Shown here: positions 10,975 to 43,202 of the stretch, piece after piece | Layout: every line of letters starts with the position of its first letter | Position numbering within the stretch: position 1 is the stretch's first letter | Source: an uncultured archaeon | Lineage (GTDB): Archaea; Altiarchaeota; Altiarchaeia; JAFGQM01 | Length of the DNA: 49,545 nucleotides | Reading direction: 5' to 3' | Assembly: GCA_964619365.1 (NCBI GenBank) | Contig: CAZUDQ010000010.1 | Location: 1-49,545, forward strand | Notes under the pieces: model-generated | The model's database searches: none | Told to the model about the DNA's origin: nothing | The model's input: the letters and a program-made list of their open reading frames with translations, nothing else | Position numbers and translations under genes: made by a program

Positions 10975-12120
10975 ATGAAAGTTGCAATAGTCTCCCCACA
11001 GTACCCCCCTGTACGTGGTGGGATAGCAGAACATGTAGAAGGGCTTGCCTTTGCGCTTTCAAAAAATAATGATGTGAGTGTTTTTTCTATGGCGCCTAAG
11101 GAAAATCGGGATATCCCTTTCACCTTTGTCTCCTTAAAAGAAGCAAAGCCTGATATGTTAAACTCTGTTTCAGGACTCCTTTCATATATCTCATTTGCAA
11201 AAAAAGTTCAAAAGGAGCTTTGCGCAAACGATTTTGATATAATCCATAGCCATTCATACGGCGCTTATTTTATGGATGCGCAAAATACTGTGGAGACGAT
11301 ACATTCCACGTGGGCTGGGGAAGCACGCGCTCTTTCTGATTCTAATCCCGCAACGATAGAAAAAGCTCTCCACATAATTAGTCCCATACTCTCACGAATC
11401 GAGAAAAAGGGGCTTATGCGAACAAAAAGAGTCATTGCAGTAAGTGATTTTCTAAGGAACGAAGCGATAGCCGAATACGCCCTTTCCCCCGAAAAGATTG
11501 ATATTGTCCCAAATGGCATCTCAAGGGATTTTTTTATTCCCGGAAACCGTGAGAAGATACGCGCGCGCCATAATTTCAAGGATGGCGATTTTGTATTTAT
11601 GTATCTTGGGAGGATAAGCCCAAGAAAAGGAATTCCTCTTCTGCTTGAAGCATTTAGTCTGGCAAAGAAAAAACTCCCCAAAGCAAAGCTTCTTATTGTG
11701 GGAACCGGCGACTTTGTCCCTGAGATGAACGCCATGGCCTCGCGACTAGGAATAGCAAAACAAATGCTATTTGTCAATAATGCCACAAAAGAGGAACTGC
11801 GCGATTATTACTCTGCTTGCGATACTTTTGTCCTTCCAAGTTTGTATGAGACATTTGGAATAGTCCTTCTTGAGGCGATGGCCCAGAAATGCCCGATAAT
11901 AGCATCTGATGTCTGTGCGATACCATCTGTTGCTAAGGGCGCAGCCATACTATTTTCACCTAAAAAAGAACTGCTGGCAAAAGAGATGATAAGAGTTGCA
12001 AACGATTCTATTTTAAGAAAAGAGCTTTCAGAAAAAGCGCCAAAACGCGCAGAAGAATTCTTATGGGAAAATGTCGTTAAAAAAATCGAAACTACTTACT
12101 CAAAAGTACTAAAAGAATAG
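10975..12120 (+). CDS. GT4 glycosyltransferase
   Basis: YPPVRGGIAEH, IVPNGI, GRISPRKG, PSLYETFGIVLLEAMA. Confidence 0.9.
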   Translation: MKVAIVSPQYPPVRGGIAEHVEGLAFALSKNNDVSVFSMAPKENRDIPFTFVSLKEAKPDMLNSVSGLLSYISFAKKVQKELCANDFDIIHSHSYGAYFMDAQNTVETIHSTWAGEARALSDSNPATIEKALHIISPILSRIEKKGLMRTKRVIAVSDFLRNEAIAEYALSPEKIDIVPNGISRDFFIPGNREKIRARHNFKDGDFVFMYLGRISPRKGIPLLLEAFSLAKKKLPKAKLLIVGTGDFVPEMNAMASRLGIAKQMLFVNNATKEELRDYYSACDTFVLPSLYETFGIVLLEAMAQKCPIIASDVCAIPSVAKGAAILFSPKKELLAKEMIRVANDSILRKELSEKAPKRAEEFLWENVVKKIETTYSKVLKE

Positions 12121-13523
12121 ATAACGGCGTTTCCAGATCTAAAGACTTCCTCTCCCATGCATGAGAATTTCTCAACGTCAAAGCTATATGTGTAAATGTC
12201 GCGCTCGCCTAAAAGCACATAATCTATCCCGTGCGACTTTATTATATCCTCAGCAAGCGTAGGGTTTGTTGTCTCAAGGGCAGAATAAGCCTCAAGCCAG
12301 GACTCTCCGTCAGGAAGGCACTCAAGGAAGAGGTCAAACTCAGTCTGGATTTTTGGGTTTAGAAGAATTGTATTTATGACGCCAGATGTCTCAGGATTGG
12401 CAAGCACTTTTCCGGCAGGAACGTTTTCTTTTATCCAATTTATTGCAGAAAGGTCATCAGAAGAGACTGCGGGCGCAGGAACTGTAGCAACAATAACGCA
12501 CATCAAAAGAAGGACTGCGATTATTATGGCATAAGTTTCACGCGAAAACTCAAACTCAGGAATCATAAAAGCCAACGAAAAGCCCCAAAGCAAAAGCATG
12601 TCGTATGAGTGAAGCTGTGGGAACGGGATTGATAGTGCAAAAAGGACTGAAGACAAGACAAGTGCGCTTGTCCAGAAAAGCGAATAATCGTCCCAAATCC
12701 CCTTTCTCATTCGCCTCTTTTTGACATATCGCATCATGAAAAAACTGATTAGAAGAAGTACTGGTGCAAGGAGTGCTAGCTGCCACCAACCATTGCCTGC
12801 AAGCTTTGCAACGGCAGTTGAGACATCAAGGCACGCGCTTGAACTTAGTGCCGTTGCAATAATCCAGGGGGACGCTATTCCAAAGCCTATTGCAGTACTA
12901 AGCCCCACCCAGATAAGCGGCCAGCGGTTTCCTTCACGCAGCTTAAGGAAAGAGAAGAAAAAGATACATGCAAGAAACATCAGGGCAGACGAATAATTTG
13001 TTACAAAGAGAAGAGCGAGAATACAGCCTGGCGCCCAGCAATTGCCTTTAAGGAAAAAATATATGCCAAAAGGAATAAAGAAAAGCCCGATTATCTGCGG
13101 GCTGTCATAGGCCTGCATCGCAATAAATGGCATTGTACAAAGAAGGGCGGCAACAATAAGTCCAGTTTCCTTTCCCCTAAGCCTGCTGGCTATAAAATAC
13201 CCACTAATCCCGATTAAAAGGGAAAAAAGAGGTAGAATCCACTTTACCAGCTCAAGAACAGGGATTCCTGTACCAAGACTCGCATACCCGAGGGTTAAAT
13301 GGTAGGCTGGCGGGTACAAGTGCGGACGTCCTCCAAGTGTAAAATCGACGCTTGGCACCCACCCATCGCGCGTTACAAGTTCGCCAATCCTCGCATGATA
13401 AATAGAATCATAATTGACTGGAAACTCGTTTGAGGCTGGGACATAAAACCGCAGAGCAGCAGAAATTAGGATTGAAGCCAAAAGAAAATATACAAAAGTC
13501 CTTTTGCTTAATAGTTCATGCAT
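12096..13523 (-). CDS. Multi-pass GT-C-like membrane glycosyltransferase
   Basis: DSIYHAR and YPPAYH after TM1, many TMs, C-terminal AINWIKEN...GIDYV soluble domain. Confidence 0.7.
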   Translation of the reverse strand: MHELLSKRTFVYFLLASILISAALRFYVPASNEFPVNYDSIYHARIGELVTRDGWVPSVDFTLGGRPHLYPPAYHLTLGYASLGTGIPVLELVKWILPLFSLLIGISGYFIASRLRGKETGLIVAALLCTMPFIAMQAYDSPQIIGLFFIPFGIYFFLKGNCWAPGCILALLFVTNYSSALMFLACIFFFSFLKLREGNRWPLIWVGLSTAIGFGIASPWIIATALSSSACLDVSTAVAKLAGNGWWQLALLAPVLLLISFFMMRYVKKRRMRKGIWDDYSLFWTSALVLSSVLFALSIPFPQLHSYDMLLLWGFSLAFMIPEFEFSRETYAIIIAVLLLMCVIVATVPAPAVSSDDLSAINWIKENVPAGKVLANPETSGVINTILLNPKIQTEFDLFLECLPDGESWLEAYSALETTNPTLAEDIIKSHGIDYVLLGERDIYTYSFDVEKFSCMGEEVFRSGNAVIYSFSTFE

Positions 13524-14514
13524 TTAAAATCCCCCCATAAGTTTCTTTAAGTTTCAGTCCCACACTTTCCAAACTGTGGTTTTTAAGCTCTGCCTTGCCA
13601 CTTGCACCGAGCGAAGAACGAAGCGATTCGTCCCTAATAAGTTCTTTAAGTACTGGAATAAAATCCTTTTCATCCTGCACTTTTATACAGTTTTTCCCGG
13701 ATTCCATCCACCCTTCAAAAACAGGCAGGTCGCGTACAACAACGGCTTTTCCTGCAGCCCAGGCCTCAAGTATGACAAGGCCTTGGGTCTCAGTGCGTGT
13801 CGGAAAGAAGAATATGTCTCCAGCTGAGTAGGCCGCGTGGATATCAGGCACAAACCCTGTAAACTTTACATTAGGCGGCGGATTTGAAAGTGCGCGCTTC
13901 ATATTTTTATCCTTTGTTACCGCCTTTGCAATGTTACCAAACCATACAAAGTCATTATCAAAATGTCTTGCAGTTTCAACAAAGGTGTCGACACCCTTTC
14001 TCTTAAAGACATGACCCACTGAAAAAACCACAACACCACTTAAACCGAGTTCTTCCCGAAGGTCCTCCCCCAATTTTGGATCGACTTCAAAGTCGCTTTC
14101 AGGAACGCCGTTTGTCAATGCGAGGACAGGGCAGTCTATGCCATATCCTTTAAGAAGAGCATTCCTTGAAAATTCTGTTGGAGTAACTATGTAATCTGCC
14201 TGCGAGTACACCTGTTTTAGATAATATCTAAAAAACGGTGAAAATGTGGTTGAACCAAAAAAGCTGTCTTTTGAATCTTCTTCAAGAGTATGTGCATGCA
14301 TGACAACAGGGATTCCTCTTTTTTTCGCCCTTTTTGCCTCAACTAATGTTTTTGGAAAAATGGTGTGGATATGAAGCACGTCATAATCCTCTTTTGGATT
14401 TGTCGTTACTTCTATTCCTGCAGATTCAAGAGCTTTTATATGCCTTCTTGCAGCGACCCCCACTCCGCTTTTTTTAAGCGCCGAGCCACCTTCAAAAAAT
14501 ACGCAGACCTTCAT
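13516..14514 (-). CDS. GT4 glycosyltransferase, similar to diglycosyl-lipid synthase (CpoA-like)
   Basis: KSGVGVA, HAHTLEEDSKDSF, KRKGVDTF, ETQGLVILEA, VRDLPVF. Confidence 0.85.
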   Translation of the reverse strand: MKVCVFFEGGSALKKSGVGVAARRHIKALESAGIEVTTNPKEDYDVLHIHTIFPKTLVEAKRAKKRGIPVVMHAHTLEEDSKDSFFGSTTFSPFFRYYLKQVYSQADYIVTPTEFSRNALLKGYGIDCPVLALTNGVPESDFEVDPKLGEDLREELGLSGVVVFSVGHVFKRKGVDTFVETARHFDNDFVWFGNIAKAVTKDKNMKRALSNPPPNVKFTGFVPDIHAAYSAGDIFFFPTRTETQGLVILEAWAAGKAVVVRDLPVFEGWMESGKNCIKVQDEKDFIPVLKELIRDESLRSSLGASGKAELKNHSLESVGLKLKETYGGILNA

Positions 14515-15640
14515 GTTTACTCCGATACTTATGCTCTTTTATTGCCGTTTTGTATGCGTCCTCAAGCTTAAGAATTGTTGCGTCAAAGGAGCGCTCTTCT
14601 GCAAACTTGCGAGAGGATTCTTTTAGTCCCTCCAGGTTGCAATAACATTTTTCTATTGAGGCAAGGAGATCTTTTTTGTCGCCCGGGGCGTAGTGATAAC
14701 CGTTTCTTCCACCTTTAATTGTATTTTTAAGGGCAAGGACATCCACCCCAACGCATGGAGTATTACACGCATTTGCTTCAAGGACGACTAACCCTTCAGT
14801 CTCACACGTTGAAGGCATGATGAGAATATCAATTGCTGAATAGAAACCACGTAAGTCATTTCTAGGAAGAAAACCTAAGAACTGTATATTTTTTTTGCCT
14901 TTCCCAAGAGCCTTATATCTTTTTGTCGAAGGGCCTTCACCTGAGATTAGTATAGTCCCGTCAAAGTCATCTGCAATCCCGATAAGGTCTTCAACATGCT
15001 TTCCTTCTGAGTGCCTGCCTGCAAAGCCTATTAGCTTGCCGCTACTAAGATTATATTTTTTCTTGAAGGATTTGGCTCCATCTTCCTTAAAGAACTCAGT
15101 GTCTATACCGTTTGAAAAGGATATGGAACTTGGCATTCGCGTGCCGGCTCGATCCTTTAACATATCGATTATTACTTCAGAAGGCGCAGTTACAAGATCG
15201 AATCGCGAAAGGAGCTTTTTTTCGTACTTAAAATAAGCCACTTCGAGTGAATCATTTACCCAGTCGTTTGAAATGGGCATAATATCTTTAAAATAAAGCT
15301 CAGGAGGTGTGTGAAAGGTCATTATGGCCGGAATATCCTTTTGCCGGGCGTAGCTTATTCCAAAAAGTCCAACAACAGCTGGTGTCTGGACATGGATGAC
15401 ATCTAAATCCTTTTCGATTTTTCTTTTTTGCGGAAGGCCGATATTGTATCCTTTATACATTGCAAAAGGAATTGAGGTTAATGGTACGTCGCCCTCATTT
15501 GGATAGTAATCCCCCGAATCTGGATAATAAACAAATACGTCATGTCCCCTTTTTTCAAGACCCTTTTTCCAAAGCTCAATAGTATAGGCAACACCATTTA
15601 CTTGTGGCAGGTAAGTATCCGTAAATATCCCAATTTTCAT
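14492..15640 (-). CDS. GT4 glycosyltransferase, similar to monoglycosyl-lipid synthase
   Basis: MKIGIFTDTYLPQVNGV, TFHT, SNGID, PSTCETEGLVVLEA. Confidence 0.9.
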   Translation of the reverse strand: MKIGIFTDTYLPQVNGVAYTIELWKKGLEKRGHDVFVYYPDSGDYYPNEGDVPLTSIPFAMYKGYNIGLPQKRKIEKDLDVIHVQTPAVVGLFGISYARQKDIPAIMTFHTPPELYFKDIMPISNDWVNDSLEVAYFKYEKKLLSRFDLVTAPSEVIIDMLKDRAGTRMPSSISFSNGIDTEFFKEDGAKSFKKKYNLSSGKLIGFAGRHSEGKHVEDLIGIADDFDGTILISGEGPSTKRYKALGKGKKNIQFLGFLPRNDLRGFYSAIDILIMPSTCETEGLVVLEANACNTPCVGVDVLALKNTIKGGRNGYHYAPGDKKDLLASIEKCYCNLEGLKESSRKFAEERSFDATILKLEDAYKTAIKEHKYRSKHEGLRIF

Positions 15641-15674
15641 TTGCTAGGTTGGCGCTAAAAAAGCTTCCTTATAT

Positions 15675-16673
15675 TTAGGAAAGAAGTATGTAAAGGCTGC
15701 ACCATATAAAGCTGTTTAAAAGAACTAAAAAGAGTATTATTGTTACAAGCCCCCTTTCGGTTTTTGGACCAAAGAGCTTTAGGATGAGCTTTGCAAAGTC
15801 AAGTCTTCCAGAAGCAGGTACAGATAATAAGTTTCCTTTTTGCCCGTAAGGCCGTTCATTTTTTTGGCTGATATCCCGCCCGTTTGTTGCAAGCTTAAGG
15901 CCGATATCGATAAAATGCGGGATAAAAAGCAACAATGCAAGCGGAAAAAGCGGCAGGAAAAGGATTATTGCACCGATAAAAGCGCCCAAAAGAAGAGTTC
16001 CTGAGTCGCCTGGGAAGACCTTTGCAGGATACCTGTTAAAGAAAAAAAGCCCTATTGCCGCGCCAAGGGCAATAACGCAAAGAAAGAGAAGAGTTTCTGT
16101 GTATTCAGGAGCCGCTATTGCCATAACAAGAAGCCCTGCAATGATTATTACAGAACTTCCCACTTCCCAGCCGTTAAGTCCGGCAAAAGAGTTTGAGAAC
16201 GATGCGCAAAGAACGATTATTATTGTCCCGAACAAGACAAACAAAAGGGTACCCGCTCCGAAAAACGCAGCACTTGCCCCCCCAAAATACGTAAATACTA
16301 TAAATGAGAATATTGCCGCGCACAACAAAAGTAAAATCCCCTTCCCAAGGGTATGAAAAGCCCAGTTGGGGTTCTTCTTAAAGAGATGGAAGCCGTCATC
16401 AAAAAAGCCTATTGCACAAAACGAGGAGATAAGGAAGAGCATTGCGTAAGAGATGGGGTTTGCCCCAAAGAAGATTATGAGTACAAGCGTGCATATCCAG
16501 ATTGCAGGGAGGAGAAGAATACCTCCAGCCTCAGGAACTTTGGGTTCGCCTTCCTTGTTTATATCCTTTCCATATATCCCTATTGAAAAAAGCTTCTTTT
16601 TTAGTGAGGCAATTGTAGCAATAGAAATCAAAAGTGATGAAAGAAGAACAAATAAAAGAAATATTACATCCAT
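15675..16673 (-). CDS. Polyprenyl-phosphate GlcNAc-1-phosphate transferase (AglH/GPT, MraY-like family)
   Basis: GKDINK...VPEAGG, GFFDD, NSFAGLNGWE, NRYPAKVFPGDSGT; multi-TM. Confidence 0.85.
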   Translation of the reverse strand: MDVIFLLFVLLSSLLISIATIASLKKKLFSIGIYGKDINKEGEPKVPEAGGILLLPAIWICTLVLIIFFGANPISYAMLFLISSFCAIGFFDDGFHLFKKNPNWAFHTLGKGILLLLCAAIFSFIVFTYFGGASAAFFGAGTLLFVLFGTIIIVLCASFSNSFAGLNGWEVGSSVIIIAGLLVMAIAAPEYTETLLFLCVIALGAAIGLFFFNRYPAKVFPGDSGTLLLGAFIGAIILFLPLFPLALLLFIPHFIDIGLKLATNGRDISQKNERPYGQKGNLLSVPASGRLDFAKLILKLFGPKTERGLVTIILFLVLLNSFIWCSLYILLS

Positions 16674-32417: not shown

Positions 32418-33542
32418 ATGGATTTATCAGGTTCGTCAAAAGCAGATGCATATGCCAAGCGCAGAATGCTAATGGTTTTACTCATAATTGTCGCAATAGC
32501 AGTCGTTAGCGCAATTCTTGCTATCAGCTCGCCGAATGTCAACCAAACTCCAGTAAAAAACAATAGCGATTCTAGTTCCCCATACGCCCCGCCCCCAGTG
32601 TATGAAAAAGAGAAGGAAGTAGTAATAGTAGAAGACGACGGGAAAAAAGAAATAATCATAATTGAAGACGAGCCAGAGATTATATGCATACTCCCACCGT
32701 TTCCTGAACTTGGCTGCCTAAAAGACAATCCCCCGCCAAATATCTTTGATGCATACGGCATGAGGACGATTGATGACAACGTAGACGACATGATTGAAGA
32801 AGTCGAAGACGAATGTGTCACCGAGCCTATTCCTGACACTCAGTGTATAATCGACACCACACTTGTCAAGTCAGAAGGCTCCTGGGCATGTGAGTGGGAC
32901 TGCCTTGAAGATATGGACTCCTGTATAATATACAAGACGCACCTTGCAGTCGCCGTCCTTAGGCAGTTTGTCCCGCCAACTGATGTTTTTGTCGGACGTA
33001 CAGACGATTATGATTATTATATACTATACCTAGATTATTCACAAGGTTCTGACGGGTGGATGATACAACAGCCACATTACATAGGTCGTGAGGACAAGGT
33101 AAGAAAGGATACAGTATCTCTTTATAACGATGTTTATTATGCGGGCGTTATTGACGATGTTGTCTTCCCGGATATATTCCACGTTGACCTTAGCGACGAT
33201 AATCCACAATTCTGTTTTGATGTCCCATCAGACGAGTCTTGTGCCTGCGAAGTTGATATAGGGACATTTACAGTAGGTGAATGCCCCCAGCTTCCAGCAG
33301 ACCTACGTGGAATCTGTGATGAGACTGTCGATTATGTTTATATCAACCCGGGCAACAACAGAATATGTTTTGAGGTTTCAGAAGATGCTGAAGAAGAGCT
33401 TTACACTTATAAGTTTGACCTGACAAGCGGAGAAGACCACTATTATGTTGGTGGCGCTCTTGTCACAACACGGAGTTATGACTGTTGTGTTGATGCATCT
33501 TTTGAAGGATTCATAGAAATAACAGACGACGAAGACGATTGA
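32418..33542 (+). CDS. Membrane-anchored acidic Cys-rich extracellular protein
   Basis: 374 aa; N-terminal TM; Asp/Glu-rich; many Cys. Confidence 0.8.
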   Translation: MDLSGSSKADAYAKRRMLMVLLIIVAIAVVSAILAISSPNVNQTPVKNNSDSSSPYAPPPVYEKEKEVVIVEDDGKKEIIIIEDEPEIICILPPFPELGCLKDNPPPNIFDAYGMRTIDDNVDDMIEEVEDECVTEPIPDTQCIIDTTLVKSEGSWACEWDCLEDMDSCIIYKTHLAVAVLRQFVPPTDVFVGRTDDYDYYILYLDYSQGSDGWMIQQPHYIGREDKVRKDTVSLYNDVYYAGVIDDVVFPDIFHVDLSDDNPQFCFDVPSDESCACEVDIGTFTVGECPQLPADLRGICDETVDYVYINPGNNRICFEVSEDAEEELYTYKFDLTSGEDHYYVGGALVTTRSYDCCVDASFEGFIEITDDEDD

Positions 33543-33605
33543 ATAAACGAAGTTCTCTCTTGTTTTGTTAAGCTAAAAGAACAAGTGGGTTCTGTACTAT
33601 TCCCT

Positions 33606-34304
33606 TTAGTCTCGTAATACTTCCTTTGGTATCTTGCCTTCATAAAGCGCTTTACCAAGTATACAACAATGAAGTCCTAATGTCTCAAGCGTCTTTATGT
33701 CCTCTTCGCTGCTTATGCCCCCTGAAGCACATAGAAGCGCATCAATCATGGCGAGTTTTGAGAATTCATCAACGTCAATACCCTCCATTTTTCCTTCTTT
33801 ATCAACGTCTGTAATAAGGAAACAGTAACAGTAGGGTTTTAGCTCATCTATAAGCTCTGCAGTAAAGAGACCACTACCATCTTTCCATCCATGGGTCAAA
33901 ATCTCCCCACCTCTGGAATCAAGTGCGATGATTATATGTTCGGGACCGACATCCTTTGCAAACATCTTGACAACTTCAGGTTCATTTACCGCCATCGAGC
34001 CGATTATGACGCGTGCGAAGCCCGCATCAAGAACCTCTTTAGCATGTTCTATTGAACGAACGCCGCCGCCAAACTGGCAGGGGATATTCACTTCCTGCAC
34101 AATCCTTTTTGCTATTGCAAAATTCTCACCGTCATCACCTATCGCAGCGTCAAGGTCGATTACATGAAGGCATTTTGCACCTTCCTTTTCCCATTTCTTT
34201 GCGATTTCAACAGGATCCCCGTAGTATTTTTCGGTTCCTGGAGCGCCCCCAATAAGCTGGGCGCATTTGCCGTCTCTAATGTCTACAGCCGGTATTATAT
34301 TCAT
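33606..34304 (-). CDS. hisA: ProFAR isomerase HisA
   Basis: IIPAVDIRDGK, LHVIDLDAA, FGGGVRS, TDVDKEG, ASGGISS, GKALYEG. Confidence 0.93.
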   Translation of the reverse strand: MNIIPAVDIRDGKCAQLIGGAPGTEKYYGDPVEIAKKWEKEGAKCLHVIDLDAAIGDDGENFAIAKRIVQEVNIPCQFGGGVRSIEHAKEVLDAGFARVIIGSMAVNEPEVVKMFAKDVGPEHIIIALDSRGGEILTHGWKDGSGLFTAELIDELKPYCYCFLITDVDKEGKMEGIDVDEFSKLAMIDALLCASGGISSEEDIKTLETLGLHCCILGKALYEGKIPKEVLRD

Positions 34305-34422
34305 TTTTTACTAGATTAGATATTATCCCTTATAAAACTTATTGGTATTATTCTAGCTTTTTAAAGCTTAAACTATAATTTAGAATGAAAAAACCACAAA
34401 ATATGGTTAAAACCCAACCAAA

Positions 34423-34719
34423 ATGGATCTTATGAACAAAAAAGGCCAAACGGCCCTAGAATACCTACTTATTGTTGTTGTGGCAATTATAGTTGTCGTC
34501 GCGGTGATGGTATGGATGAACGCTACTACAAGTGAAGCAATAACTACGACTACAGGTCAAGTAAATGTAGCTCTTTGCCGCGCAGTATCATGTACGGCTG
34601 ATGCTGATTGTCCGGTAGATCTTGTAGCTGGAGCAGCAACCTGCGGTACTGCCGCGACGTGTGTTGGTACAAGCAATATTGGTTCGACTACAATACCAGG
34701 TCACTGTGAGCCGGCATAA
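34423..34719 (+). CDS. Class III signal-peptide pilin with six-Cys C-terminal domain; likely the major pilin
   Basis: KKG|QTALEYLL plus hydrophobic helix; first gene of the locus, followed by its own terminator. Confidence 0.9.
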   Translation: MDLMNKKGQTALEYLLIVVVAIIVVVAVMVWMNATTSEAITTTTGQVNVALCRAVSCTADADCPVDLVAGAATCGTAATCVGTSNIGSTTIPGHCEPA

Positions 34720-34770
34720 GCCCGGTTCACATCTATTCTCTTTTCTTTTTTAATTTTTTCTTTATTTTCA
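34706..34770 (+). terminator. Hairpin plus long T-rich tract after the first pilin
   Basis: GTGAGCCGG-7nt-CCGGTTCAC, then TCTCTTTTCTTTTTTAATTTTTT. Confidence 0.6.
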
Positions 34771-34780
34771 TTATCTTAAA

Positions 34781-35017
34781 ATGCGCTATAAAGGTCAAAC
34801 GGCCCTTGAATACCTCCTTATAGTTGTCGTCTTACTTGTCGTAGTCGTACTTGCAGTAGTCCTTACACAGAATATCGGCGAGAGTGTAGTTGGTGATATG
34901 AATGAGACTGTAGGGAACACAGAGTGCGGACTTACGCGATGCAATGGACCCTCTGATTGTATTGCTGCTTGCGGAGACGGGGCTGATTGTATTGCAGGGA
35001 TTTGCTGGATTGACTAA
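34781..35017 (+). CDS. Class III signal-peptide pilin with six-Cys domain
   Basis: YKG|QTALEYLL; CGLTRCNGPSDCIAACGDGADCIAGIC. Confidence 0.9.
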   Translation: MRYKGQTALEYLLIVVVLLVVVVLAVVLTQNIGESVVGDMNETVGNTECGLTRCNGPSDCIAACGDGADCIAGICWID

Positions 35018-35057
35018 CTTGCCCTAAGATTTATTAATCTCCTTCCATTAATTCCTT

Positions 35058-35339
35058 ATGTATAGAGCCGTCAATAATGCGCGCGGGCAAACCGCTCTTG
35101 AGTATCTTCTTCTAACAACTGTGTCACTTGTTTTGATTCTTGGCGTCCTTATCTGGTCTCAAAGCCAAGTTGAAAGTGCAGGAAGCTCAATAGAATCAAG
35201 CAGCGGGCCTGTAACAATAGGCATATGCCGAGCCGTTCCTTGTTACACGGAACTTGAATGCGACATTTCAGATGAGTGCAGTACTCTTGATGCAAATTGC
35301 GTCATGGGGTTTTGCTCGCCGCCTGAACCAACTGAATGA
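35058..35339 (+). CDS. Class III signal-peptide pilin with six-Cys domain
   Basis: ARG|QTALEYLL; CRAVPCYTELEC..C..CVMGFC. Confidence 0.9.
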   Translation: MYRAVNNARGQTALEYLLLTTVSLVLILGVLIWSQSQVESAGSSIESSSGPVTIGICRAVPCYTELECDISDECSTLDANCVMGFCSPPEPTE

Positions 35340-35369
35340 TTTATTAAGAAAATACGCTTAATTTACACA

Positions 35370-35555
35370 ATGAAGCCAATCTTTAAGAACAGAAAAGGCC
35401 AAACGGCTCTTGAATACCTCCTTATGATAGCAATAGTCCTGGCTCTTTTGGTTCTTGTCATCTCGATGACTCAGTATGTGGAGGAAATCGGTGTTGGCAT
35501 AGGTGGGACTCTTGAGGCCTCACGAGTACAGGTAATTGACTGGCTTCTCATATGA
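35370..35555 (+). CDS. Minimal (Flp-like) class III signal-peptide pilin, Cys-free
   Basis: RKG|QTALEYLL; 61 aa. Confidence 0.85.
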   Translation: MKPIFKNRKGQTALEYLLMIAIVLALLVLVISMTQYVEEIGVGIGGTLEASRVQVIDWLLI

Positions 35556-36285
35556 TTCTTTTGATAAAATGGAAGTAACTAGCACCTTGCGCATACTCCG
35601 CGCAGGGGCGATTTCATTTGTCCTTGCAAGTCTTGCAATATTTTTTGCATATTATATTTTTCCACAACAGGCATCAATCCTTGCAATAACCTTTGTTGTA
35701 ATAGCACTAACGCCATTACTTTACGATGCAACACGCGATGAGGAAAAGATAGTCGAGAAATGCGGAGTCGGTTTCATTGAGCGTTACAGTAATATTGTGG
35801 AATCCATGCTTGTCATCTCGATAGGCATATTTCTCGCATACTTAATTTGGGGCGCCCTTCTCCCACCTGGATCTCCAGATGGGGTATGTACAGGTTCTTT
35901 GCCATGTAGTTCTGCAATATTCCTCCTGCAGGGTGAGGCCGCAATAGCAACACGGGGCGTTTTTGAAGCCTTGGCACTTGTCGGATTTTCGTTTTTCCTT
36001 TCACTTTTCTTAGGAGCTGGCGCCTTACTCATAATCACCTGGGACTTATCCTCACTTATTGTGCGCTCGGCAATTGGTCCGCTTGCATTTTTTGCTTACT
36101 TGCCACAACTTTTCGGTTTCTTTTTAGCAGGTCTTGCAGGCGCACTTCTATCATTTGCAATACTCTCCCATGACTTTAAAAGTCCAGGTTTTAGACATGT
36201 TATAAGCGATTCGTTCCTCCTACTGGGTCTCTCCATAGTACTTGTCATATTAGGAGCATTTTTTAGCGGGCTTACTTTAACTTAA
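35536..36285 (+). CDS. SpoIIM-like membrane protein; alternative ATG 35569
   Basis: Multi-TM; FLSLFLGAGALLIITW and FFLAGLAGALLS resemble archaeal SpoIIM-like proteins. Confidence 0.65.
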   Translation: MTGFSYDSFDKMEVTSTLRILRAGAISFVLASLAIFFAYYIFPQQASILAITFVVIALTPLLYDATRDEEKIVEKCGVGFIERYSNIVESMLVISIGIFLAYLIWGALLPPGSPDGVCTGSLPCSSAIFLLQGEAAIATRGVFEALALVGFSFFLSLFLGAGALLIITWDLSSLIVRSAIGPLAFFAYLPQLFGFFLAGLAGALLSFAILSHDFKSPGFRHVISDSFLLLGLSIVLVILGAFFSGLTLT

Positions 36286-36303
36286 ACGGGTGTTTGACAG
36301 CAA

Positions 36304-36846
36304 ATGAAATCAAGACGCGGGCAGATGACTTTGGAGTTTGCAGTCATGCTGATGGTTGTAATAAGCATTTTTGCCTACGTTACGATACCCGCCAGCGAAG
36401 TTTCACGCGCAACAATATCGGGTGTCGGGACAAGTGCCCTGGCAAGAAAAGCGGTAGATTCAATAGTACAAAAGGCAAATGTTGTGGGGATAAGCGGTGA
36501 GGGCGCGCGCGGCGCAGTAAAGATAACACCCGCTTCGACATTTAAATTATTTTCCATAACGGGTGGACGTAACCTGAGCGCAAGTTTTGAAATTCCAAGC
36601 AGCGCCGAACTCTATGATTTAGAGGGCACAGAACTTTACGCTCTTGTGACGCCATCGATATCAGAATACACTCGTGAGGCGGATTTTGATATTTCAGGCG
36701 ACCTTTCCAGTCTTGCACCCCTAAGCTCGGCACAGACATATTGTGTCTGTATGGAAAACAGCGGCGGCGTTGTTGAACTGGAGACTATGAAATATGGGCC
36801 ATGGGGGTGTGACTGCACTGATGTTTACGGGATAGCAAAGAACTAA
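36304..36846 (+). CDS. Class III signal-peptide minor pilin
   Basis: RRG|QMTLEFAV; later GISGEGA motif. Confidence 0.85.
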   Translation: MKSRRGQMTLEFAVMLMVVISIFAYVTIPASEVSRATISGVGTSALARKAVDSIVQKANVVGISGEGARGAVKITPASTFKLFSITGGRNLSASFEIPSSAELYDLEGTELYALVTPSISEYTREADFDISGDLSSLAPLSSAQTYCVCMENSGGVVELETMKYGPWGCDCTDVYGIAKN

Positions 36847-36849
36847 AGA

Positions 36850-37572
36850 ATGAAAGTGATTAAGAACAAGCGCGGGCAACTCGCAATCGAAGCTTCAATA
36901 ATACTTGTCATTCTTGTTGACATACTCCTCCTATTCTGGTTAAACGGTCCCTTGCAGGAAGCAGAAGAAAGCTGGACTGATGTCAATGCAGTGGCTCTAG
37001 GGCAAAACTCGCTTTTGCAAATTGCATCGGCTGTAAGGGAAGTGAATCTGGGTGGTATTGGTGCAAAACAGGATTTCATGATTCATATACCCTTTAACAC
37101 AGTTGATATACAAGACGGAGACGGCTCAGGGACGTATTCTGTAAACGAGACTTTAGAGGGACGACTTTTAGGAAAAGGACCATTTAAAAACGGACCTTAT
37201 GTTAACCTAACACTAATAACTTACAGGCCGGCAGGAGACTTGACTGTTCCATTTACCGTAAACGAAAATGGCGAGTTTTACACAGGGTCTGACAGTATAC
37301 AGACTCCGTTTTATGCAATAACTTTAGTCCAGGGTATTGACGCCCCCCTTGAGAACTTTCCCTTATGTGCCATAAAGGAAAACGCATCTGAAGCAAGGAC
37401 CGGCCTTACAAGGTTCTACTTTGCAACAGAAGACGGTCAAAGGGACATAAAATTCTGTTCTGAAGCAGGGTTTAATGTATTTTTATATCTTGACAAGACT
37501 CCCTTTTACACAATGAGGATGCTCCCGCGCCATTATTACACACTTCCAGAAAACTGGGACATAAAACTATGA
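36850..37572 (+). CDS. Class III signal-peptide minor pilin
   Basis: KRG|QLAIEASI; IASAVREVNLGGIGA. Confidence 0.85.
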   Translation: MKVIKNKRGQLAIEASIILVILVDILLLFWLNGPLQEAEESWTDVNAVALGQNSLLQIASAVREVNLGGIGAKQDFMIHIPFNTVDIQDGDGSGTYSVNETLEGRLLGKGPFKNGPYVNLTLITYRPAGDLTVPFTVNENGEFYTGSDSIQTPFYAITLVQGIDAPLENFPLCAIKENASEARTGLTRFYFATEDGQRDIKFCSEAGFNVFLYLDKTPFYTMRMLPRHYYTLPENWDIKL

Positions 37573-38054
37573 CAAAAAGTAATTTATCTCGGAAAGGGCA
37601 GCTTTCATTCGACCTTGCCTTTGCTGTAATCCTGATAGTTATCATCGCAAGTGGTATGATAATATATTTCAATTCCTCAAATGAGGCCTTAAGGTACCCG
37701 ACTGCGGCAGCTGCCGCGACTTCAGCCTGTCAGAGTGTGGCATCAAGTGTATCAGCTCTTGCAAATAGTGTAGACAGCACAAAAACAGTTCAGGTTTCAT
37801 ATGCAACAGTTGAGATTCCAAGCGATTTTCTCTCTTCTGACCCCACTAACATCTATAGTGCCGTCAACTCTTATACTCTGGCGATTTCAGGCGATACAAT
37901 AAGCTGCACGTCCCTTCTTTCAGATTCGCAGGTGATAATGGAACTCGGATTTTCTCCTTGTGACTCAGCAATAACACTTATCCCTGGCGACACATTAGTC
38001 CTTCACTGGAACGCGACAAGTTCTGGACGCTTCAAATGCTCAAAATTAACATGA
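37569..38054 (+). CDS. Class III signal-peptide minor pilin
   Basis: RKG|QLSFDLAF; ATGA coupling. Confidence 0.85.
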   Translation: MTKSNLSRKGQLSFDLAFAVILIVIIASGMIIYFNSSNEALRYPTAAAAATSACQSVASSVSALANSVDSTKTVQVSYATVEIPSDFLSSDPTNIYSAVNSYTLAISGDTISCTSLLSDSQVIMELGFSPCDSAITLIPGDTLVLHWNATSSGRFKCSKLT

Positions 38055-38425
38055 AAACCTTAAGAATATCAAAAAAGGGCCAAATGGCAATGGAGTCGCT
38101 TTTTACAGTCCTTTTTATCATAACTGCAACAGGTGGGATATTCCAGGCTGCGCTTTTTGAGAATTTGGCAATAGATACTATGGCAAGCTCACGCGCCCTA
38201 CTTGAGGCTGCTGCAACCGAGATGACGATATTAGGGTATAAAACACACTTAGTACGATTGGATTATAATGTCTCAACAGGACTTCCTGATGTCTATGTTT
38301 TTTCAGAGGATTGCAGTAAATTCAGACAGACGCTAGCAGAACACTACTCCTCAGGTAGTTTGGACTCAGGTGAAAACGAATTTATATGTTCAGAAGAGAT
38401 TTATGCGAACAAATTCAGGTTTTAA
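38051..38425 (+). CDS. Class III signal-peptide minor pilin
   Basis: KKG|QMAMESLF; start reassigned to the ATGA overlap at 38051. Confidence 0.85.
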   Translation: MKTLRISKKGQMAMESLFTVLFIITATGGIFQAALFENLAIDTMASSRALLEAAATEMTILGYKTHLVRLDYNVSTGLPDVYVFSEDCSKFRQTLAEHYSSGSLDSGENEFICSEEIYANKFRF

Positions 38426-38426
38426 G

Positions 38427-38969
38427 ATGATTGGCAAAATAAAGAACTTGCACCAGAAGCGGGCGGGACAGGTGTTCTCCTTAGATGCGTTCTTTTCACT
38501 TCTTGCAATAATGCTCATATTTGGAACATCTCTGCAGTATATCTATTTGTCAGGAGAAGAATTGGGGAGTTTGCATGATATAAAATCACTCGAGTTCCCT
38601 GCGCGCGCCACAGCAGATATCGCATACGCGGCATATATTGATGACCCATTAAGTCCCACAATGCTAATCCAGAACGGCGATTGTCAAAACTTAGTTCAGG
38701 GCAGTATTACACAGGGTCAAATACCTGATGTGGGTTATTGGCTTGAAGCAGCAGACCTTGCCAAGTCAGACAATTATATGGAAAAGAGTATATGCGAGGA
38801 ATGTTACCCGCAAGAAAACTGTGGGACGGGGGACAAACTATACCTTTTTAACAATGCAAACCAGACAACAGCATCAGTTGTGCGTTTCATGCTTGCCCCA
38901 GACGCCAGCGGAAGCTTAGTGCCGGGCAGAATAGCAACAGTATCATTTAACATTTGGAAAGAACAATGA
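38427..38969 (+). CDS. Class III signal-peptide minor pilin
   Basis: KRAG|QVFSLDAFF; start reassigned to ATG 38427. Confidence 0.85.
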   Translation: MIGKIKNLHQKRAGQVFSLDAFFSLLAIMLIFGTSLQYIYLSGEELGSLHDIKSLEFPARATADIAYAAYIDDPLSPTMLIQNGDCQNLVQGSITQGQIPDVGYWLEAADLAKSDNYMEKSICEECYPQENCGTGDKLYLFNNANQTTASVVRFMLAPDASGSLVPGRIATVSFNIWKEQ

Positions 38970-39385
38970 AAAAGATAAGCTCAAAAAAAGGCCTTGCGGC
39001 AATGCTCGATTCACTTTTTGCATTTTCAATTGCGATAATGGCAATTGGCACACTTGCACTACTCGCCGTGCCTGGGGAAAGTTCAAGCCAGGCTACTGAT
39101 TATTCGGTGAATGTATGGGCTGAGGACATAGCTGATGCCTTTGCAATAAGTTTGGATTGGAACCAGACAAAAGCAAGCGATTCAAATTTTCAGACAGAAT
39201 TTAATCAAAGCATAAATGCGATTGCGGGCAGCTTCCACATGTACATTTCAGCAGAGCTAAACGGCAACTCTTTTGAAGCGAGTGGGAACTACAATGTGCC
39301 AGACACAATAGCTGTTGCAAAACGTGTTCTTTATGACGCCTCAATCGACGAGTTTTCAATTTTGGAGGTAAAAGTTGGGATATAA
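38966..39385 (+). CDS. Class III signal-peptide minor pilin
   Basis: KKG|LAAMLDSLF; ATGA overlap at 38966; C-terminal LEVKV strand. Confidence 0.8.
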   Translation: MKKISSKKGLAAMLDSLFAFSIAIMAIGTLALLAVPGESSSQATDYSVNVWAEDIADAFAISLDWNQTKASDSNFQTEFNQSINAIAGSFHMYISAELNGNSFEASGNYNVPDTIAVAKRVLYDASIDEFSILEVKVGI

Positions 39386-39386
39386 G

Positions 39387-39719
39387 ATGAAACAAAAAGG
39401 CTATGTATTCAGTATAGGAATCGCGCTCCTTTTGATTGTGGCTTTTGTAATGGCAATAGCCCTTATCATGTCCCAGTCAGTCTTAAGAGAAGGCAATTAT
39501 GATGAGATTGCCGTAAGAAAGCTTGTGGGTGCTGCCAGAAATGCAAAAGTGCTTGATGAATTGGGCGTTGGGTTAAGTAATGCAACGGATGAAATGGCGA
39601 GTGCAGGTTTTCCCTTTAACATACGGTCTGAGATAGTTTCGTATGGGGGTTCTGATAAGTATTACATGATGTTTGAGACATCATCAATACAACTTTCAAC
39701 AGAGTTTGACAACCCTTAG
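39387..39719 (+). CDS. Pilin-like protein with class III-like signal
   Basis: KQKG|YVFSIGIALL; start reassigned to ATG 39387. Confidence 0.75.
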   Translation: MKQKGYVFSIGIALLLIVAFVMAIALIMSQSVLREGNYDEIAVRKLVGAARNAKVLDELGVGLSNATDEMASAGFPFNIRSEIVSYGGSDKYYMMFETSSIQLSTEFDNP

Positions 39720-40154
39720 ATGCCAAAGAAAGAGAGTAAGCGGACATTTGAATTCTTTGCAAAAGGACACCCAAACGTTCTTTGTGAGCACAGAAGCACT
39801 CTTGAAATAACACGCGAAGCTTTCCTCACAAAAAAAGGTGATTGCATAATAGGGATTTCCTCAGAAAAAGCATGCGCAGATATTCCCGACTGGCTAAAGT
39901 CCCACTTAGAAAACGGCGGCAGGATTCAGATAAAACTATCCTGTGGTAAAATTCACGACACAATAGAAGCAAAAGGCGATAAGAAGCTCTCATTTGAATC
40001 AAAAGATTCTATTGTCATAAGAAAAAGTGATTTTTGTTGTGGCAGGACGCTTTGTGTCAATTCGAATAAGGTGGCATGTGATATTTCACGAGAATTGATA
40101 AACGCTCTTGTGGATAAGAACAGCAATCTAAAAGTAGAGATAACAGTTCTCTAA
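39720..40154 (+). CDS. DUF371-family archaeal protein
   Basis: AKGHPNV..EH..TLEIT.E.FLT.KGDCIIG, VIRKSDF, K.A.DI.RELI. Confidence 0.9.
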   Translation: MPKKESKRTFEFFAKGHPNVLCEHRSTLEITREAFLTKKGDCIIGISSEKACADIPDWLKSHLENGGRIQIKLSCGKIHDTIEAKGDKKLSFESKDSIVIRKSDFCCGRTLCVNSNKVACDISRELINALVDKNSNLKVEITVL

Positions 40155-40489
40155 GATATTTCAAGAGCCTTTAAGCACGCCGTATACTCTACAGTTTCTT
40201 CCCATGAGCACCCCTTAACACCTAAGGAACAGCGGCTATATTTGAGGCAGTCATATTCTTTCTTGTAACTGCAGTCCGAAAGCATTGGAGTTTCTGCGCA
40301 AATCTCATTTGAGCACCCTGAGACCACACAGCTTGCGTCCTGCAGCTCAGCTGCAGTTTCGCCTTCAGTCACATTTAGTATCTCATCAAGTATTTCAAAA
40401 TCATTTACCGAGTCGATACTCGTTAGGACAGTCAAACCGACAGCTGCTATAACCAGAACGAATACTGCGTAGATGAGAGTCTTTTCCAT
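40151..40489 (-). CDS. Membrane-anchored Cys-cluster protein (eight-cysteine-cluster-like)
   Basis: N-terminal TM; CVVSGCSNEICA..SDC..EYDCLKYSRC..GCSW..CL. Confidence 0.75.
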   Translation of the reverse strand: MEKTLIYAVFVLVIAAVGLTVLTSIDSVNDFEILDEILNVTEGETAAELQDASCVVSGCSNEICAETPMLSDCSYKKEYDCLKYSRCSLGVKGCSWEETVEYTACLKALEIS

Positions 40490-41285: not shown

Positions 41286-43202
41286 TTAGAAGAGCCACTC
41301 ATCTCCTGTGTACTCTTCTATCTGAACTTCAGCTGTTGATGGGGCTTTCTCCAATATCTCCAACATATCGATTTCTTGTTCTAAGCTATAATCGCCAAGT
41401 ATGTCCATTTGTGACTCAAAGTATTTTGTGAAATTACCAAACACTTCTTTGTAGTGTGGGGATACCGTTAAGTCAACACTTGCCCGCTCCCATGGGGAAA
41501 AGACATGGTAATAATAACAGTCGGGACATTCCTCTTCAGTCGGCTGCTCTGGTGGAAGGAGTATTCCGCATTTTTCAGAGACGCGGTAATCACAAGGCAT
41601 TGGTACTGGAACTAGCCATGGTCCTGGTGTATCATCACCGCGCTCATCAAGTATCCAGTCCTTTATGACACTCGTGTACCTTGATAGGAGGATGCCCTTT
41701 TCTATTCCTGTGTTTGGATAAGTCTCTTCACTTCCTCCAAGAACTATCTCCTTTTCTACTTTGTGGGTTTGCCCACCCCGGTCCTTGTAGCTTGCAATAA
41801 GAGTTGCTTTGCCAACCTCACCATCAGTCAAAGGAGTGAGCTTGAGTATGATTATTCCGCCTTTAACCTCGCCACCTTCGCTTTTTGAGGGGAAAAGAGT
41901 GTTTACTTTCATAATCTCGCCAGTTGCGGCGTCAGCTTCAGGGCTCCCAAACACCCTCTCGATTTCATAATCATCAGAGTCTAAGGAAAGTATCAAGTCA
42001 AAGACAAGGGGGGTTACCATGTATTCAAAGCCTTCGTCCATTCTCTCTTTAAAGTCCTTTCCGGAATGAACTGAATAGTAGTTTGCACCCTTCACTTTGG
42101 AGATGGCTTCAATGAGTTCAGTGTTAAAGTCAACACCTATTCCGATAAACGTTGAGTAGATACCGTCATCAGCGTTCTTCCCAGTCATTCCAAGAAGGCT
42201 TTCCTCGCTTATTGCGCCCGTATTTGGCATGGCGTCAGTCAGGAAGATTATTCTGTTCTCATACTCGGATTTATCTGCGTTAATATATTCTTTGAATTCT
42301 TCAGTTCCAAGGGCCATTCCAGCCTCCATATTTGTCCCACCCTGGTCCTTAAGTTCTAAGATGTGATCTGCAATAGCACCCATATCTGTGTTGCCAACAA
42401 GCGAGAGTGGCTTAGCAAGATAACCTGTGTCATCAAAAACAACCATGCCGAAGCGGTCGTCATCATTTAGGTGTGAAAGAAGTTCGACAACAGCTTCGTT
42501 TGCTATTTCCATCTTGCTTTTATCCATATCCTCATCATAGATTGGTTCTTTGCCCGGAGTGAACTGGTCGTAGTAATACTTGTCAAAAGGCGAGCCCATA
42601 GAACCCGAGATATCAAGGACGACAACAAGATTTAGTTTCTTTCTTTCAAAGTCGCTTTCCTTGATATTTGAGTCAAGCCCGACGGAAAGATAATCTTCAA
42701 GTTCTCCTGAAAGTGGATCTTTGCTTTTTGCATAACTGTAACTTGGACAAAATAGCTCTTCACAAGGACTGTCGGTTTTCCCTGTGTCAAAGAAATAGTC
42801 GTAGAAAAGCCCCTCATAAGTAATGTCTGTGTAAAGCGGGAAATAGCCTTCTTCTAAATTTGCCCTGAAATTCTCAATGTCTTTTGCCCCCCCGACTGAG
42901 AATCCCAAGTTTCCATCAGCCGCCTCCATTTGCATTGTTGGCGCATAACCACCTGTCGTTCCGCCAAAACTTTTTGAGATTCCACCCCAAAAATCCTCCG
43001 ACGAATCATACTTTAAGGACCAGTCGTCGATTTTTACGCTTATTGAACCGTTGGGGGTAGTGATAAGTATTGTGTCCGGGCCGCTTACAGTTAATACTGC
43101 AACAAGTGCTATTACTGCAATACAGATGCATACTCCAAAAAGCGTCCACTCATTTTTCGTGCTTTTCACAGCGGATTTTTCAACAGTTTTTTTCTTGTCC
43201 AT
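41286..43202 (-). CDS. Membrane-anchored VWA-domain protein
   Basis: MIDAS VLDISGSM, GGTNM, IIFLTDA, IGIGVDFN; N-terminal TM. Confidence 0.9.
   Translation of the reverse strand: MDKKKTVEKSAVKSTKNEWTLFGVCICIAVIALVAVLTVSGPDTILITTPNGSISVKIDDWSLKYDSSEDFWGGISKSFGGTTGGYAPTMQMEAADGNLGFSVGGAKDIENFRANLEEGYFPLYTDITYEGLFYDYFFDTGKTDSPCEELFCPSYSYAKSKDPLSGELEDYLSVGLDSNIKESDFERKKLNLVVVLDISGSMGSPFDKYYYDQFTPGKEPIYDEDMDKSKMEIANEAVVELLSHLNDDDRFGMVVFDDTGYLAKPLSLVGNTDMGAIADHILELKDQGGTNMEAGMALGTEEFKEYINADKSEYENRIIFLTDAMPNTGAISEESLLGMTGKNADDGIYSTFIGIGVDFNTELIEAISKVKGANYYSVHSGKDFKERMDEGFEYMVTPLVFDLILSLDSDDYEIERVFGSPEADAATGEIMKVNTLFPSKSEGGEVKGGIIILKLTPLTDGEVGKATLIASYKDRGGQTHKVEKEIVLGGSEETYPNTGIEKGILLSRYTSVIKDWILDERGDDTPGPWLVPVPMPCDYRVSEKCGILLPPEQPTEEECPDCYYYHVFSPWERASVDLTVSPHYKEVFGNFTKYFESQMDILGDYSLEQEIDMLEILEKAPSTAEVQIEEYTGDEWLF

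Follow-up and report, generated by a model that had tools for sequence, protein, structure and literature searches.

What are the four tiny genes that stand in a row in the genome of an uncultured archaeon of the Altiarchaeota, and what does a shared N-terminus do on proteins of which three continue into a cysteine-rich domain and the fourth does not? The DNA analyzed (the window) is the whole 49,545-nt stretch of contig CAZUDQ010000010.1 from assembly GCA_964619365.1. It has a GC content of 43%, encodes TBP and MCM, which marks it as archaeal, and belongs to an assembly of 1.2 Mb in 17 contigs that is 85% complete (G000 below). The four small open reading frames (ORFs) in question and the AT-rich stretch before them are as follows:

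34305-34422, + strand: AT-rich stretch 5' of pilin 1 (23% GC), presumed promoter
34423-34719, + strand: pilin 1, 98-residue prepilin with a long-form six-cysteine head, cysteine spacing 4, 5, 10, 5, 14
34781-35017, + strand: pilin 2, 78-residue prepilin with a short-form six-cysteine head, cysteine spacing 4, 5, 3, 5, 4
35058-35339, + strand: pilin 3, 93-residue prepilin with a short-form six-cysteine head, cysteine spacing 4, 5, 5, 6, 4
35370-35555, + strand: pilin 4, 61-residue headless mini-prepilin without cysteine, C-terminus ...QVIDWLLI

We propose that these genes probably encode subunits of a type IV pilus of the Epd/Flp-like kind, in which three of the subunits would carry small disulfide-rich heads at the surface. 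The initial annotation had reported four forward-strand ORFs with an identical GQTALEYLL start, a common six-cysteine pattern with G-x-C in the first three, no head in the fourth, and AT-rich spacers of 30 to 60 nt between them, all of which agreed with the ORF list and the alignment. G-Q-T-A-L-E-Y-L-L was invariant in all four proteins, including the +1 Gln and +5 Glu (Q9 and E13 in pilin 1 numbering) and the +6 Tyr, and G-x-C was found at the last cysteine of each of pilins 1 to 3. The leaders are basic and end in Gly (MDLMNKKG, MRYKG, MYRAVNNARG and MKPIFKNRKG in pilins 1 to 4), with a hydrophobic stretch after each. All four proteins have the prepilin signal, that is, a short basic leader, Gly and about 20 or more hydrophobic residues, and all four have the Flp motif G/XXXXEY (here G/QTALEY). 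The Pfam family Class_IIIsignal (PF04021, DUF361; cut-off of 23.7 bits) matched all four, with pilin 1 (26.8 bits) and pilin 4 (32.4 bits, the best of the four) above the cut-off. Flp_Fap (PF04964; cut-off of 32.2 bits) was approached by pilin 1 (15.6 bits, E value of 0.015) and pilin 2 (13.3 bits, E value of 0.073) without being reached, and pilins 3 and 4 were not among its listed matches.

The spacers between the four genes measured 61, 40 and 30 nt, with 20-33% GC. Elements resembling TTTATTAA lie about 24-31 nt 5' of the start codons of pilins 3 and 4. Separate promoters were considered as a conserved feature and dropped, since the syntenic locus in L015, the closest named record (a metagenome-assembled genome [MAG] labelled Candidatus Altiarchaeota archaeon), has spacers of 3-16 nt and no such element.

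The six-cysteine head and its family

A word-index search with pilin 1 returned 29 relatives of 76-150 residues besides its own protein, at E values down to 6e-28, and an exhaustive profile search of 1.84 billion proteins returned 119 clusters at E<=1e-3, 46 of them at E<=1e-10, with pilin 2 itself as cluster P0032. The possibility of chance ORFs was ruled out by these 29 homologues and 119 clusters. The word-index search with pilin 4 gave one relative only, the index being limiting for such short proteins. The prepilin motif was present in 130 of the 134 stored family proteins and C-x4-C-x5-C in 60. Among the 56 proteins with both features, the first cysteine lay exactly 44 residues past the -1 Gly in 47. 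Cysteine numbers in the 100 stored members of no more than 130 residues were six in 58, four in 11, eight in 10 and none in 12, and even non-zero counts outnumbered odd ones by 82 to 6.

An alignment of 40 sequences had five invariant cysteine columns and a sixth conserved in at least 90%. In the window the module reads C-x4-C-x5-C-x3/5/10-C-x5/6-C-x4/14-C and spans 30-45 residues, and in the family the spacing is 4, 5, 3-12, 5-8 and 3-14. The initial annotation had named unconserved cysteine spacing in homologues as grounds for abandoning its idea of a distinct head; the spacing is conserved, and with near-invariant cysteine columns in 40 pilins the head stands as a real conserved module. The two loop insertions that had been ascribed to pilin 1 were confirmed as long loops, but pilin 1 shares them with a conserved long-form subfamily, which they define and in which the last loop has 14 residues (as in P0002-P0009 and P0015).

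Conservation was distributed unevenly along the proteins. The 39 members with the exact cysteine pattern had a mean pairwise identity of 62% over mature residues 1-25 and of 18% over residues 26-43, and the non-cysteine positions from C1 to C3 averaged 19%. The stalk of the head pilins was near-invariant across distant loci (KGQTALEYLLIVVVAIIVVVAVMVWM), and 38 of the 40 aligned relatives matched Class_IIIsignal, while 24 of the 40 matched Flp_Fap at E<=1. In the head itself the recurrent residues of the 39 members were an Asp before C3 (24/39), a Gly after C4 (23/39) and a Gly two positions before C6 (21/39); no conserved His or aromatic head position was seen among them. A head-only profile was run against a set of 61 genomes of the phylum, where it had matches in G000 and in 5 of its 7 fellow family members but in none of the 53 remaining genomes; some of these matches are sequences from which the profile was built, those in G004 and G005 being independent.

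Judging by its distribution, the head is an autonomous module, which occurs alone, in tandem (on a pilin in P0064 and on a non-pilin anchor in P0080), on other non-pilin anchors and before large adhesin-like domains. A 427-residue protein from a same-genus genome (L004, positions 1363-2646, + strand) begins with about 95 residues that correspond to a pilin-1-like stalk and long-form head (59% identical) and continues into a 330-residue domain with 23 more cysteines; similar forms of 418-438 residues are found in P0033, P0034 and P0055. Longer relatives with the same N-terminus carry Beta_helix/NosD, Laminin_G_3, TSP_3 and MopE modules, the last with the MopE putative metal-binding motif at 81.5 bits in P0099. 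Since the same N-terminus bears beta-helix, laminin-G, TSP3 and MopE modules as well as the head with its extension, the stalk evidently serves to present extracellular binding modules.

Elsewhere in the source genome, three close open frames with class III signals (700, 1630 and 106 residues) lie at G000:C1:119053-124397 (- strand) and are candidate giant pilin-like adhesins; the 1630-residue family member P0113 has four Laminin_G_3 stretches. The N-terminus RGQTALEYLL was also observed in MAG records with bacterial labels (L009, 5388-5663, and L012, 6001-7068; Planctomycetales and Omnitrophota), the Omnitrophota-labelled protein having 355 residues and 26 cysteines. These records may point to a relationship of Flp-like stalks across domains, or to errors of binning.

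Full-length pilins 1 and 3 were modelled with AlphaFold2 using family alignments. The pilin 1 model (mean predicted local distance difference test [pLDDT] score of 73.8) consisted of a helix over residues 11-53, ending at the first cysteine (C52), and four short strands over residues 79-96. The pilin 3 model had a mean pLDDT of 78.5, with block means of 79-89 over head residues 61-90, and its head was predicted to form two short helices and one hairpin, with no beta-sandwich. In both models the first cysteine stands where the long helix, which starts at residue 11, comes to its end. With the two full-length models as queries, Foldseek found nothing in the PDB at E<=0.001; the best rows, none of them significant, included the alpha-defensin HNP4 (E value of 6.6) and the scorpion toxin BeKm-1 (E value of 4, TM score of 0.58 by target). 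A wide VIA-align search produced long-helix matches only (Z<=4.3, model residues 3-47), in which the head was barely covered.

Sequence searches with the head led to the same kinds of proteins. The head profile gave non-significant matches among PDB sequences to the nodule cysteine-rich peptide NCR13 (E value of 0.034) and to squash trypsin inhibitors (E values of 0.04-0.2). The Pfam family AtDEF-like scored 22.7 bits on pilin 2, below its 25-bit cut-off, and was matched at E<=1 by 9 of 40 relatives; a Pfam scan of these 40 relatives found no head family other than this sub-threshold one. NCBIfam gave nothing above noise for the four pilins. The structural neighbors in the Atlas, none of which reached its naming bar, were clusters of the late-nodulin, EB, CC and Dickkopf_N types, and a feature-based search of the Atlas yielded no usable match. 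No family of Pfam, NCBIfam, the PDB or the Atlas thus matched the head significantly, in agreement with the earlier suggestion of a distinct pilin class. No paper on such a six-cysteine pilin head surfaced in full-text literature searching, and the head had no counterpart in the cysteine and disulfide passages of two surveys of archaeal type IV pili (PMC4858521 and PMC13705601). From the sequences and models together, we read the head as a small, presumably disulfide-rich module of generic knottin- or defensin-like look that falls outside any described family.

Gene order and the terminator-like element

The array opens a conserved operon composed of one to four cysteine-head mini-pilins, a headless mini-pilin, a SpoIIM-like membrane protein and seven larger prepilin-like genes. 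The remaining genes of this neighborhood, with identities to their counterparts in L015, are listed here:

32418-33542, + strand: cysteine-rich acidic protein with an N-terminal membrane anchor, 374 residues, no Pfam family, 44.5% identical over 364 residues
35569-36285, + strand: polytopic membrane protein, distant SpoIIM-like paralogue, 238 residues from ATG 35569, no direct Pfam match
36304-36846, + strand: prepilin-like m1, 180 residues, RRGQMTLEF..., Class_IIIsignal 18.4 bits (below cut-off), 36% identical
36850-37572, + strand: prepilin-like m2, 240 residues, KRGQLAIEA..., 33% identical
37569-38054, + strand: prepilin-like m3, 161 residues, RKGQLSFDL..., 34% identical
38036-38425, + strand: prepilin-like m4, 129 residues, KKGQMAMES..., 36% identical
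38370-38969, + strand: prepilin-like m5, KRAGQVFSLD..., probable start ATG 38427, 38% identical over 71 residues
38954-39385, + strand: prepilin-like m6, 143 residues, KKGLAAMLD..., 33% identical
39375-39719, + strand: prepilin-like m7, 114 residues, QKGYVFSIG..., 35% identical
39720-40154, + strand: DUF371 protein, last of the gene row, PF04027 (E value of 7.9e-46), 52% identical, syntenic

L015 has the order of the window: a 375-residue cysteine-rich membrane protein, a divergent hisA, three cysteine-head pilins, a headless pilin, the membrane protein, seven prepilin-like genes and DUF371. By blastp, 14 of 15 genes could be paired with identities of 33-67%, and the membrane protein was matched separately. 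The head pilins of the two loci had no one-to-one orthology, and one six-cysteine pilin of L015 (6247-6483, + strand) has Arg in place of Glu at +5 (GQSALRYIL), which is unusual for a type IV pilin. The cysteine-rich protein at 32418-33542 may belong to the same surface system as the pilins.

The headless pilin was found as a single-copy gene in 15 distinct loci (the window and 14 others), and in 14 of the 15 it had one to four small cysteine pilins directly upstream; in L028, the exception, the contig extends only 234 nt upstream of it. The number of head pilins before it is one in L014, L027, L029, L031, L065 and L068, where a contig end or a masked run truncates some of the arrays; it is two in L052, L054, L056 and L081, three in L015, L053 and the window, and four in L050. 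The heads in these arrays have 4, 6, 8 or 12 cysteines, the 12-cysteine form being a tandem head. This variation in number and type before one conserved headless pilin fits the idea, already put forward in the initial annotation, that the head pilins are interchangeable subunits. Related N-termini also occur in records that bear the label Micrarchaeia or Micrarchaeota, and in more distant loci labelled Micrarchaeia or Norongarragalinales (L021, L023, L024 and L083) small cysteine pilins with other cysteine patterns are again followed by a cysteine-free one.

The downstream prepilin-like genes abut or overlap, as had been noted. The overlapping start that had been assumed directly after pilin 4 did not hold: the membrane protein most likely begins at ATG 35569, 13 nt past pilin 4, rather than at the overlapping TTG 35536. 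Each of the 7 other family genomes encodes a relative of this protein, 44-53% identical, except that the same-genus genome has only a partial match (E value of 3e-5). The protein also matched a paralogue at G000:C4:57185-57997, which scores 48.3 bits on SpoIIM (PF01944). A term search for SpoIIM in the type IV pilus survey PMC4858521 gave 0 occurrences, and the excerpts of the second survey do not mention it either.

The transcript of pilin 1 may have an end of its own, at the following element:

34705-34760, + strand: terminator-like hairpin and T-rich tract, with a 10-bp stem at 34705-34731 that overlaps the pilin 1 stop codon (-16.7 kcal/mol)

A GC-rich hairpin with a T-tract was found 3' of the long-form pilin gene in all five loci with downstream DNA (the window, L050, L053, L054 and L062), with stem sequences that differ among the five, and also 3' of the first gene in L056; genes directly before the next pilin gene were without it. 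This recurrence supports the earlier proposal that pilin 1 has its own terminator. We infer a terminator- or attenuator-like element, which would fit a highly expressed first gene with read-through into the following ones. Since the element is conserved after the long-form first gene, pilin 1 is probably the major subunit.

Several other features of the window were noted. At 10975-16673 there are four GT4-type glycosyltransferases, a 475-residue ORF without a Pfam family and a Glycos_transf_4 protein (PF00953) of the sugar-phosphate transferase type; this cluster could supply surface or pilin glycans. An N-x-S/T sequon was present within mature residues 20-43 of 24 of 39 head pilins. On the opposite strand, 1.1 kb past the end of the pilin gene row, a 638-residue protein with a von Willebrand factor A domain is encoded (41286-43202, - strand). 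A 112-residue membrane-anchored protein with an eight-cysteine-cluster domain (40151-40489, - strand; TIGR04289 at 33.8 bits against a cut-off of 50, TIGR04292 at an E value of 1.4e-10) is another small extracellular cysteine-rich module nearby.

The proposed filament and other explanations

Components for the assembly of a type IV filament are present in the genome, all of them outside the window. There were seven matches to T2SSE-type ATPases (six above the cut-off), six to T2SSF platform proteins and one to the prepilin peptidase family Peptidase_A24, in an open frame of 302 residues. No T2SSE, T2SSF or A24 domain was found in any scanned ORF of the window, which thus contains no tad locus. 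A DsbA-like ORF (Thioredoxin_4, 69.4 bits) at G000:C6:62483-63163 bears on the plausibility of disulfide formation.

On the reading that we favor, the A24 peptidase would cut the basic leader of 4-10 residues between Gly and Gln (G/QTALEY), and the near-invariant N-terminal helix of the mature protein would then pack in the filament core, with extrusion driven by an ATPase and platform pair encoded elsewhere in the genome. In pilins 1 to 3 a helix of about 43 residues is predicted to end at the first cysteine of the 30-45-residue module, and its fixed length would set the head at a constant radius. The six cysteines most likely form three disulfides, giving a rigid surface knob with hypervariable loops. 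Pilin 1, as the long form and first gene, would be the abundant subunit, with the short forms, pilins 2 and 3, as alternative or co-assembled subunits, and the headless pilin 4, the SpoIIM-like protein and the seven larger prepilins could be conserved low-abundance parts for assembly, priming or the tip. Such a filament would attach to a surface or to another cell, and its variable heads might set specificity or escape recognition; host attachment and virus evasion, the roles put forward in the initial annotation, are conjectural, as is a knotted arrangement of the cysteines. Attachment is the likely function by analogy with the pili of Methanococcus maripaludis, for which it is the sole known function according to passages of PMC3875500.

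A bolder version of this proposal, which we put forward only tentatively, is a modular display pilus. Its stalk would be of fixed length and its knottin-like three-disulfide heads swappable, with the number and type of head genes (one to four; 4, 6, 8 or 12 cysteines) setting what the filament binds, and the heads would co-polymerize or alternate on a scaffold primed by the headless pilin.

A number of observations weigh against the pilus with disulfide-rich heads, or against parts of it. Pilins 2 (21.0 bits) and 3 (17.1 bits) score below the Class_IIIsignal cut-off, and the pilin operon adjoins no ATPase or platform gene. VKOR was not found at E<=0.01 in the 85%-complete genome. The head is not specific to pili, as it also occurs on non-pilin membrane anchors without the G-Q...E motif (a 96-residue ORF at L007 1498-1788, - strand; P0080; P0110). 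Separate transcription of the pilin genes is not universal either: in L015, which has a higher GC content, the closely spaced pilin genes lack a hairpin after the first. The ten listed runs with the locus are labelled salt lake metagenome, are all DNA and include no RNA run. Loop variability among strains, which the initial annotation had proposed to test, was not seen in the contigs of four other DNA runs over positions 33600-37000, which are of low depth with many bins uncovered; wherever they cover the pilin genes they are identical to the window, and the only differences listed over this interval are two single-letter changes, at 36000 and 36276. A deep pile of contigs at 34738-34777 consists of unrelated AT-rich contigs. 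Finally, among the small pilins none is as conserved as pilin 4 and no other is universal, which would also fit pilin 4 as the main filament subunit.

This last point leads to a different division of labor, in which pilin 4 is the main, Flp-like subunit and the cysteine-head pilins are minor, tip or sparse binding knobs on an all-helical fiber. Pilin 4 is the most conserved gene of its neighborhood (66.7% identity to its L015 counterpart, above the 55.8% of HisA), is a single-copy gene at each of the 15 loci examined, scores highest of the four on Class_IIIsignal and, with about 51 mature residues, G/XXXXEY and no head, is like the bacterial Flp pilins. Its gene is nevertheless the last of the small pilin genes and lies 3' of the terminator-like element found after the long-form gene, and the stalk of the head pilins is also near-invariant across distant loci (KGQTALEYLLIVVVAIIVVVAVMVWM), as expected of a core-forming major subunit. 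Small size does not decide the matter, as in M. maripaludis the major pilin and an essential minor one (MMP1283) are both small and alike in size (passages of PMC3875500). We therefore consider pilin 4 unlikely to be the main subunit and retain it among the conserved accessory parts.

Two further explanations leave the head pilins outside a conventional attachment filament. Pilins 1 to 3 might be disulfide-rich surface or released peptides of a defensin-, knottin- or nodulin-like nature, with an antimicrobial or signaling role, that use the class III signal, together with a machine of the pseudopilus type, for export or anchoring only. The weak, non-significant likenesses to NCR13, squash inhibitors, BeKm-1, HNP4, AtDEF-like and the Atlas clusters point in this direction, as does the occurrence of the head on non-pilin anchors, and class III signals are also found on sugar-binding proteins of Sulfolobus that are PibD substrates (passages of PMC4858521). 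We judge this explanation improbable, since the Gly-to-Cys distance of 44 residues in 47 of 56 proteins and the near-invariant stalk indicate a constraint from packing, which would be superfluous in a simple anchor. The genes are invariably arranged together with the headless pilin and seven larger prepilins, and there is no evident protease or release site. Alternatively, the six cysteines might bind a metal or an iron-sulfur center in a redox or conductive filament. The heads are rich in cysteine and some longer relatives contain the MopE motif, but the extracellular location, the overwhelmingly even cysteine counts, the lack of conserved His or aromatic head positions, and loop lengths of 3-14 residues, a variation that disulfide scaffolds can accommodate but metal sites generally cannot, make a metal-binding head highly improbable. 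An Epd/Flp-like pilus with disulfide-rich heads is thus the explanation that we prefer.

Relation to known pilins and cysteine-rich modules

To our knowledge, solved type IV pilins take two forms: in one the helix bears a globular head of the alpha-beta or Ig-like type, and in the other, exemplified by Flp, the helix is bare. A six-cysteine knob of 30-45 residues placed directly on a helix of fixed length would be a third. If the display pilus is real, it would represent a structural class of type IV pilin without precedent among solved filaments, and a fiber that naturally displays disulfide-rich peptides. The source lineage belongs to the uncultured, poorly known archaea with small genomes, whose surface biology is essentially unstudied, and the combination of one stalk, variable heads in one to four copies and one headless partner offers a testable model for how the binding of a filament may be varied. 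A compact, autonomous, disulfide-rich head may also interest protein engineers.

In size, motif and layout, the window most resembles the Epd (clade 1 or system 1) pili as they are described in passages of PMC3875500 and PMC4858521. Both have tiny pilins in which a short leader with a terminal Gly precedes +1 Gln and +5 Glu, and both have several small paralogues; their larger minor pilins share an operon, and the ATPase and platform genes are located elsewhere in the genome. In M. maripaludis, for instance, the major pilin MMP1685 has 74 residues (62 when mature), and the minor pilins EpdA-C are encoded in one operon apart from the ATPase and platform genes (PMC3875500). Small major pilins of about 70 residues with multiple paralogues have likewise been described for the clade 1 system (PMC4858521). 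The small size and the paralogues are accordingly not new in the window; the new part is the head, which three of its pilins have and which goes unmentioned for Epd in the cysteine and disulfide passages of the same two papers. The +6 Tyr is a further difference, present in the window pilins and absent from those of M. maripaludis according to PMC3875500.

With the Flp/Fap pilins of Tad pili (PF04964), the window proteins share the G/XXXXEY motif, weak Flp_Fap matches and, in pilin 4, the tiny mature size. They differ in scores far below the Pfam cut-off (15.6 versus 32.2 bits), in their archaeal context and in having no tad locus nearby. We know of no Flp pilin with a cysteine-rich head.

Bacterial type IVa major pilins, such as those of Neisseria and Pseudomonas, have a conserved core helix and a disulfide-bonded, hypervariable C-terminal region at the surface; their heads are alpha-beta domains of about 100 residues, as a rule with one disulfide. 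The logic of a conserved N-terminal helix in the core and an exposed, disulfide-stabilized variable C-terminal part would be the same in the window pilins, whereas the head there has 30-45 residues, six cysteines and no beta-sheet domain. Archaeal pilins with beta-sandwich heads share the class III signal and the N-terminal helix, but no beta-sandwich is predicted in the window, where the head is three to four times smaller. The premise of the initial annotation that characterized archaeal pilins have beta-sandwich heads was incomplete, given the 62 mature residues of MMP1685 (PMC3875500). Cysteines have been proposed as stabilizing in a pilin of Pyrobaculum arsenaticum (excerpts of PMC13705601).

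The head itself is closest in appearance to the knottins, defensin-like and nodule cysteine-rich peptides and the EB, CC and Dickkopf_N modules, with which it shares six cysteines in about 30 residues, a C-x-x-D-x-D-C-like stretch and a terminal G-x-C hairpin. The CS-alpha-beta signature combines CxxxC with CxC; pilins 1 to 3 have no CxC, and C-x3-C occurs only in pilin 2. The cysteine spacing of the family fits none of the signatures of these modules, and the head differs from all of them in being fused to a pilin helix.

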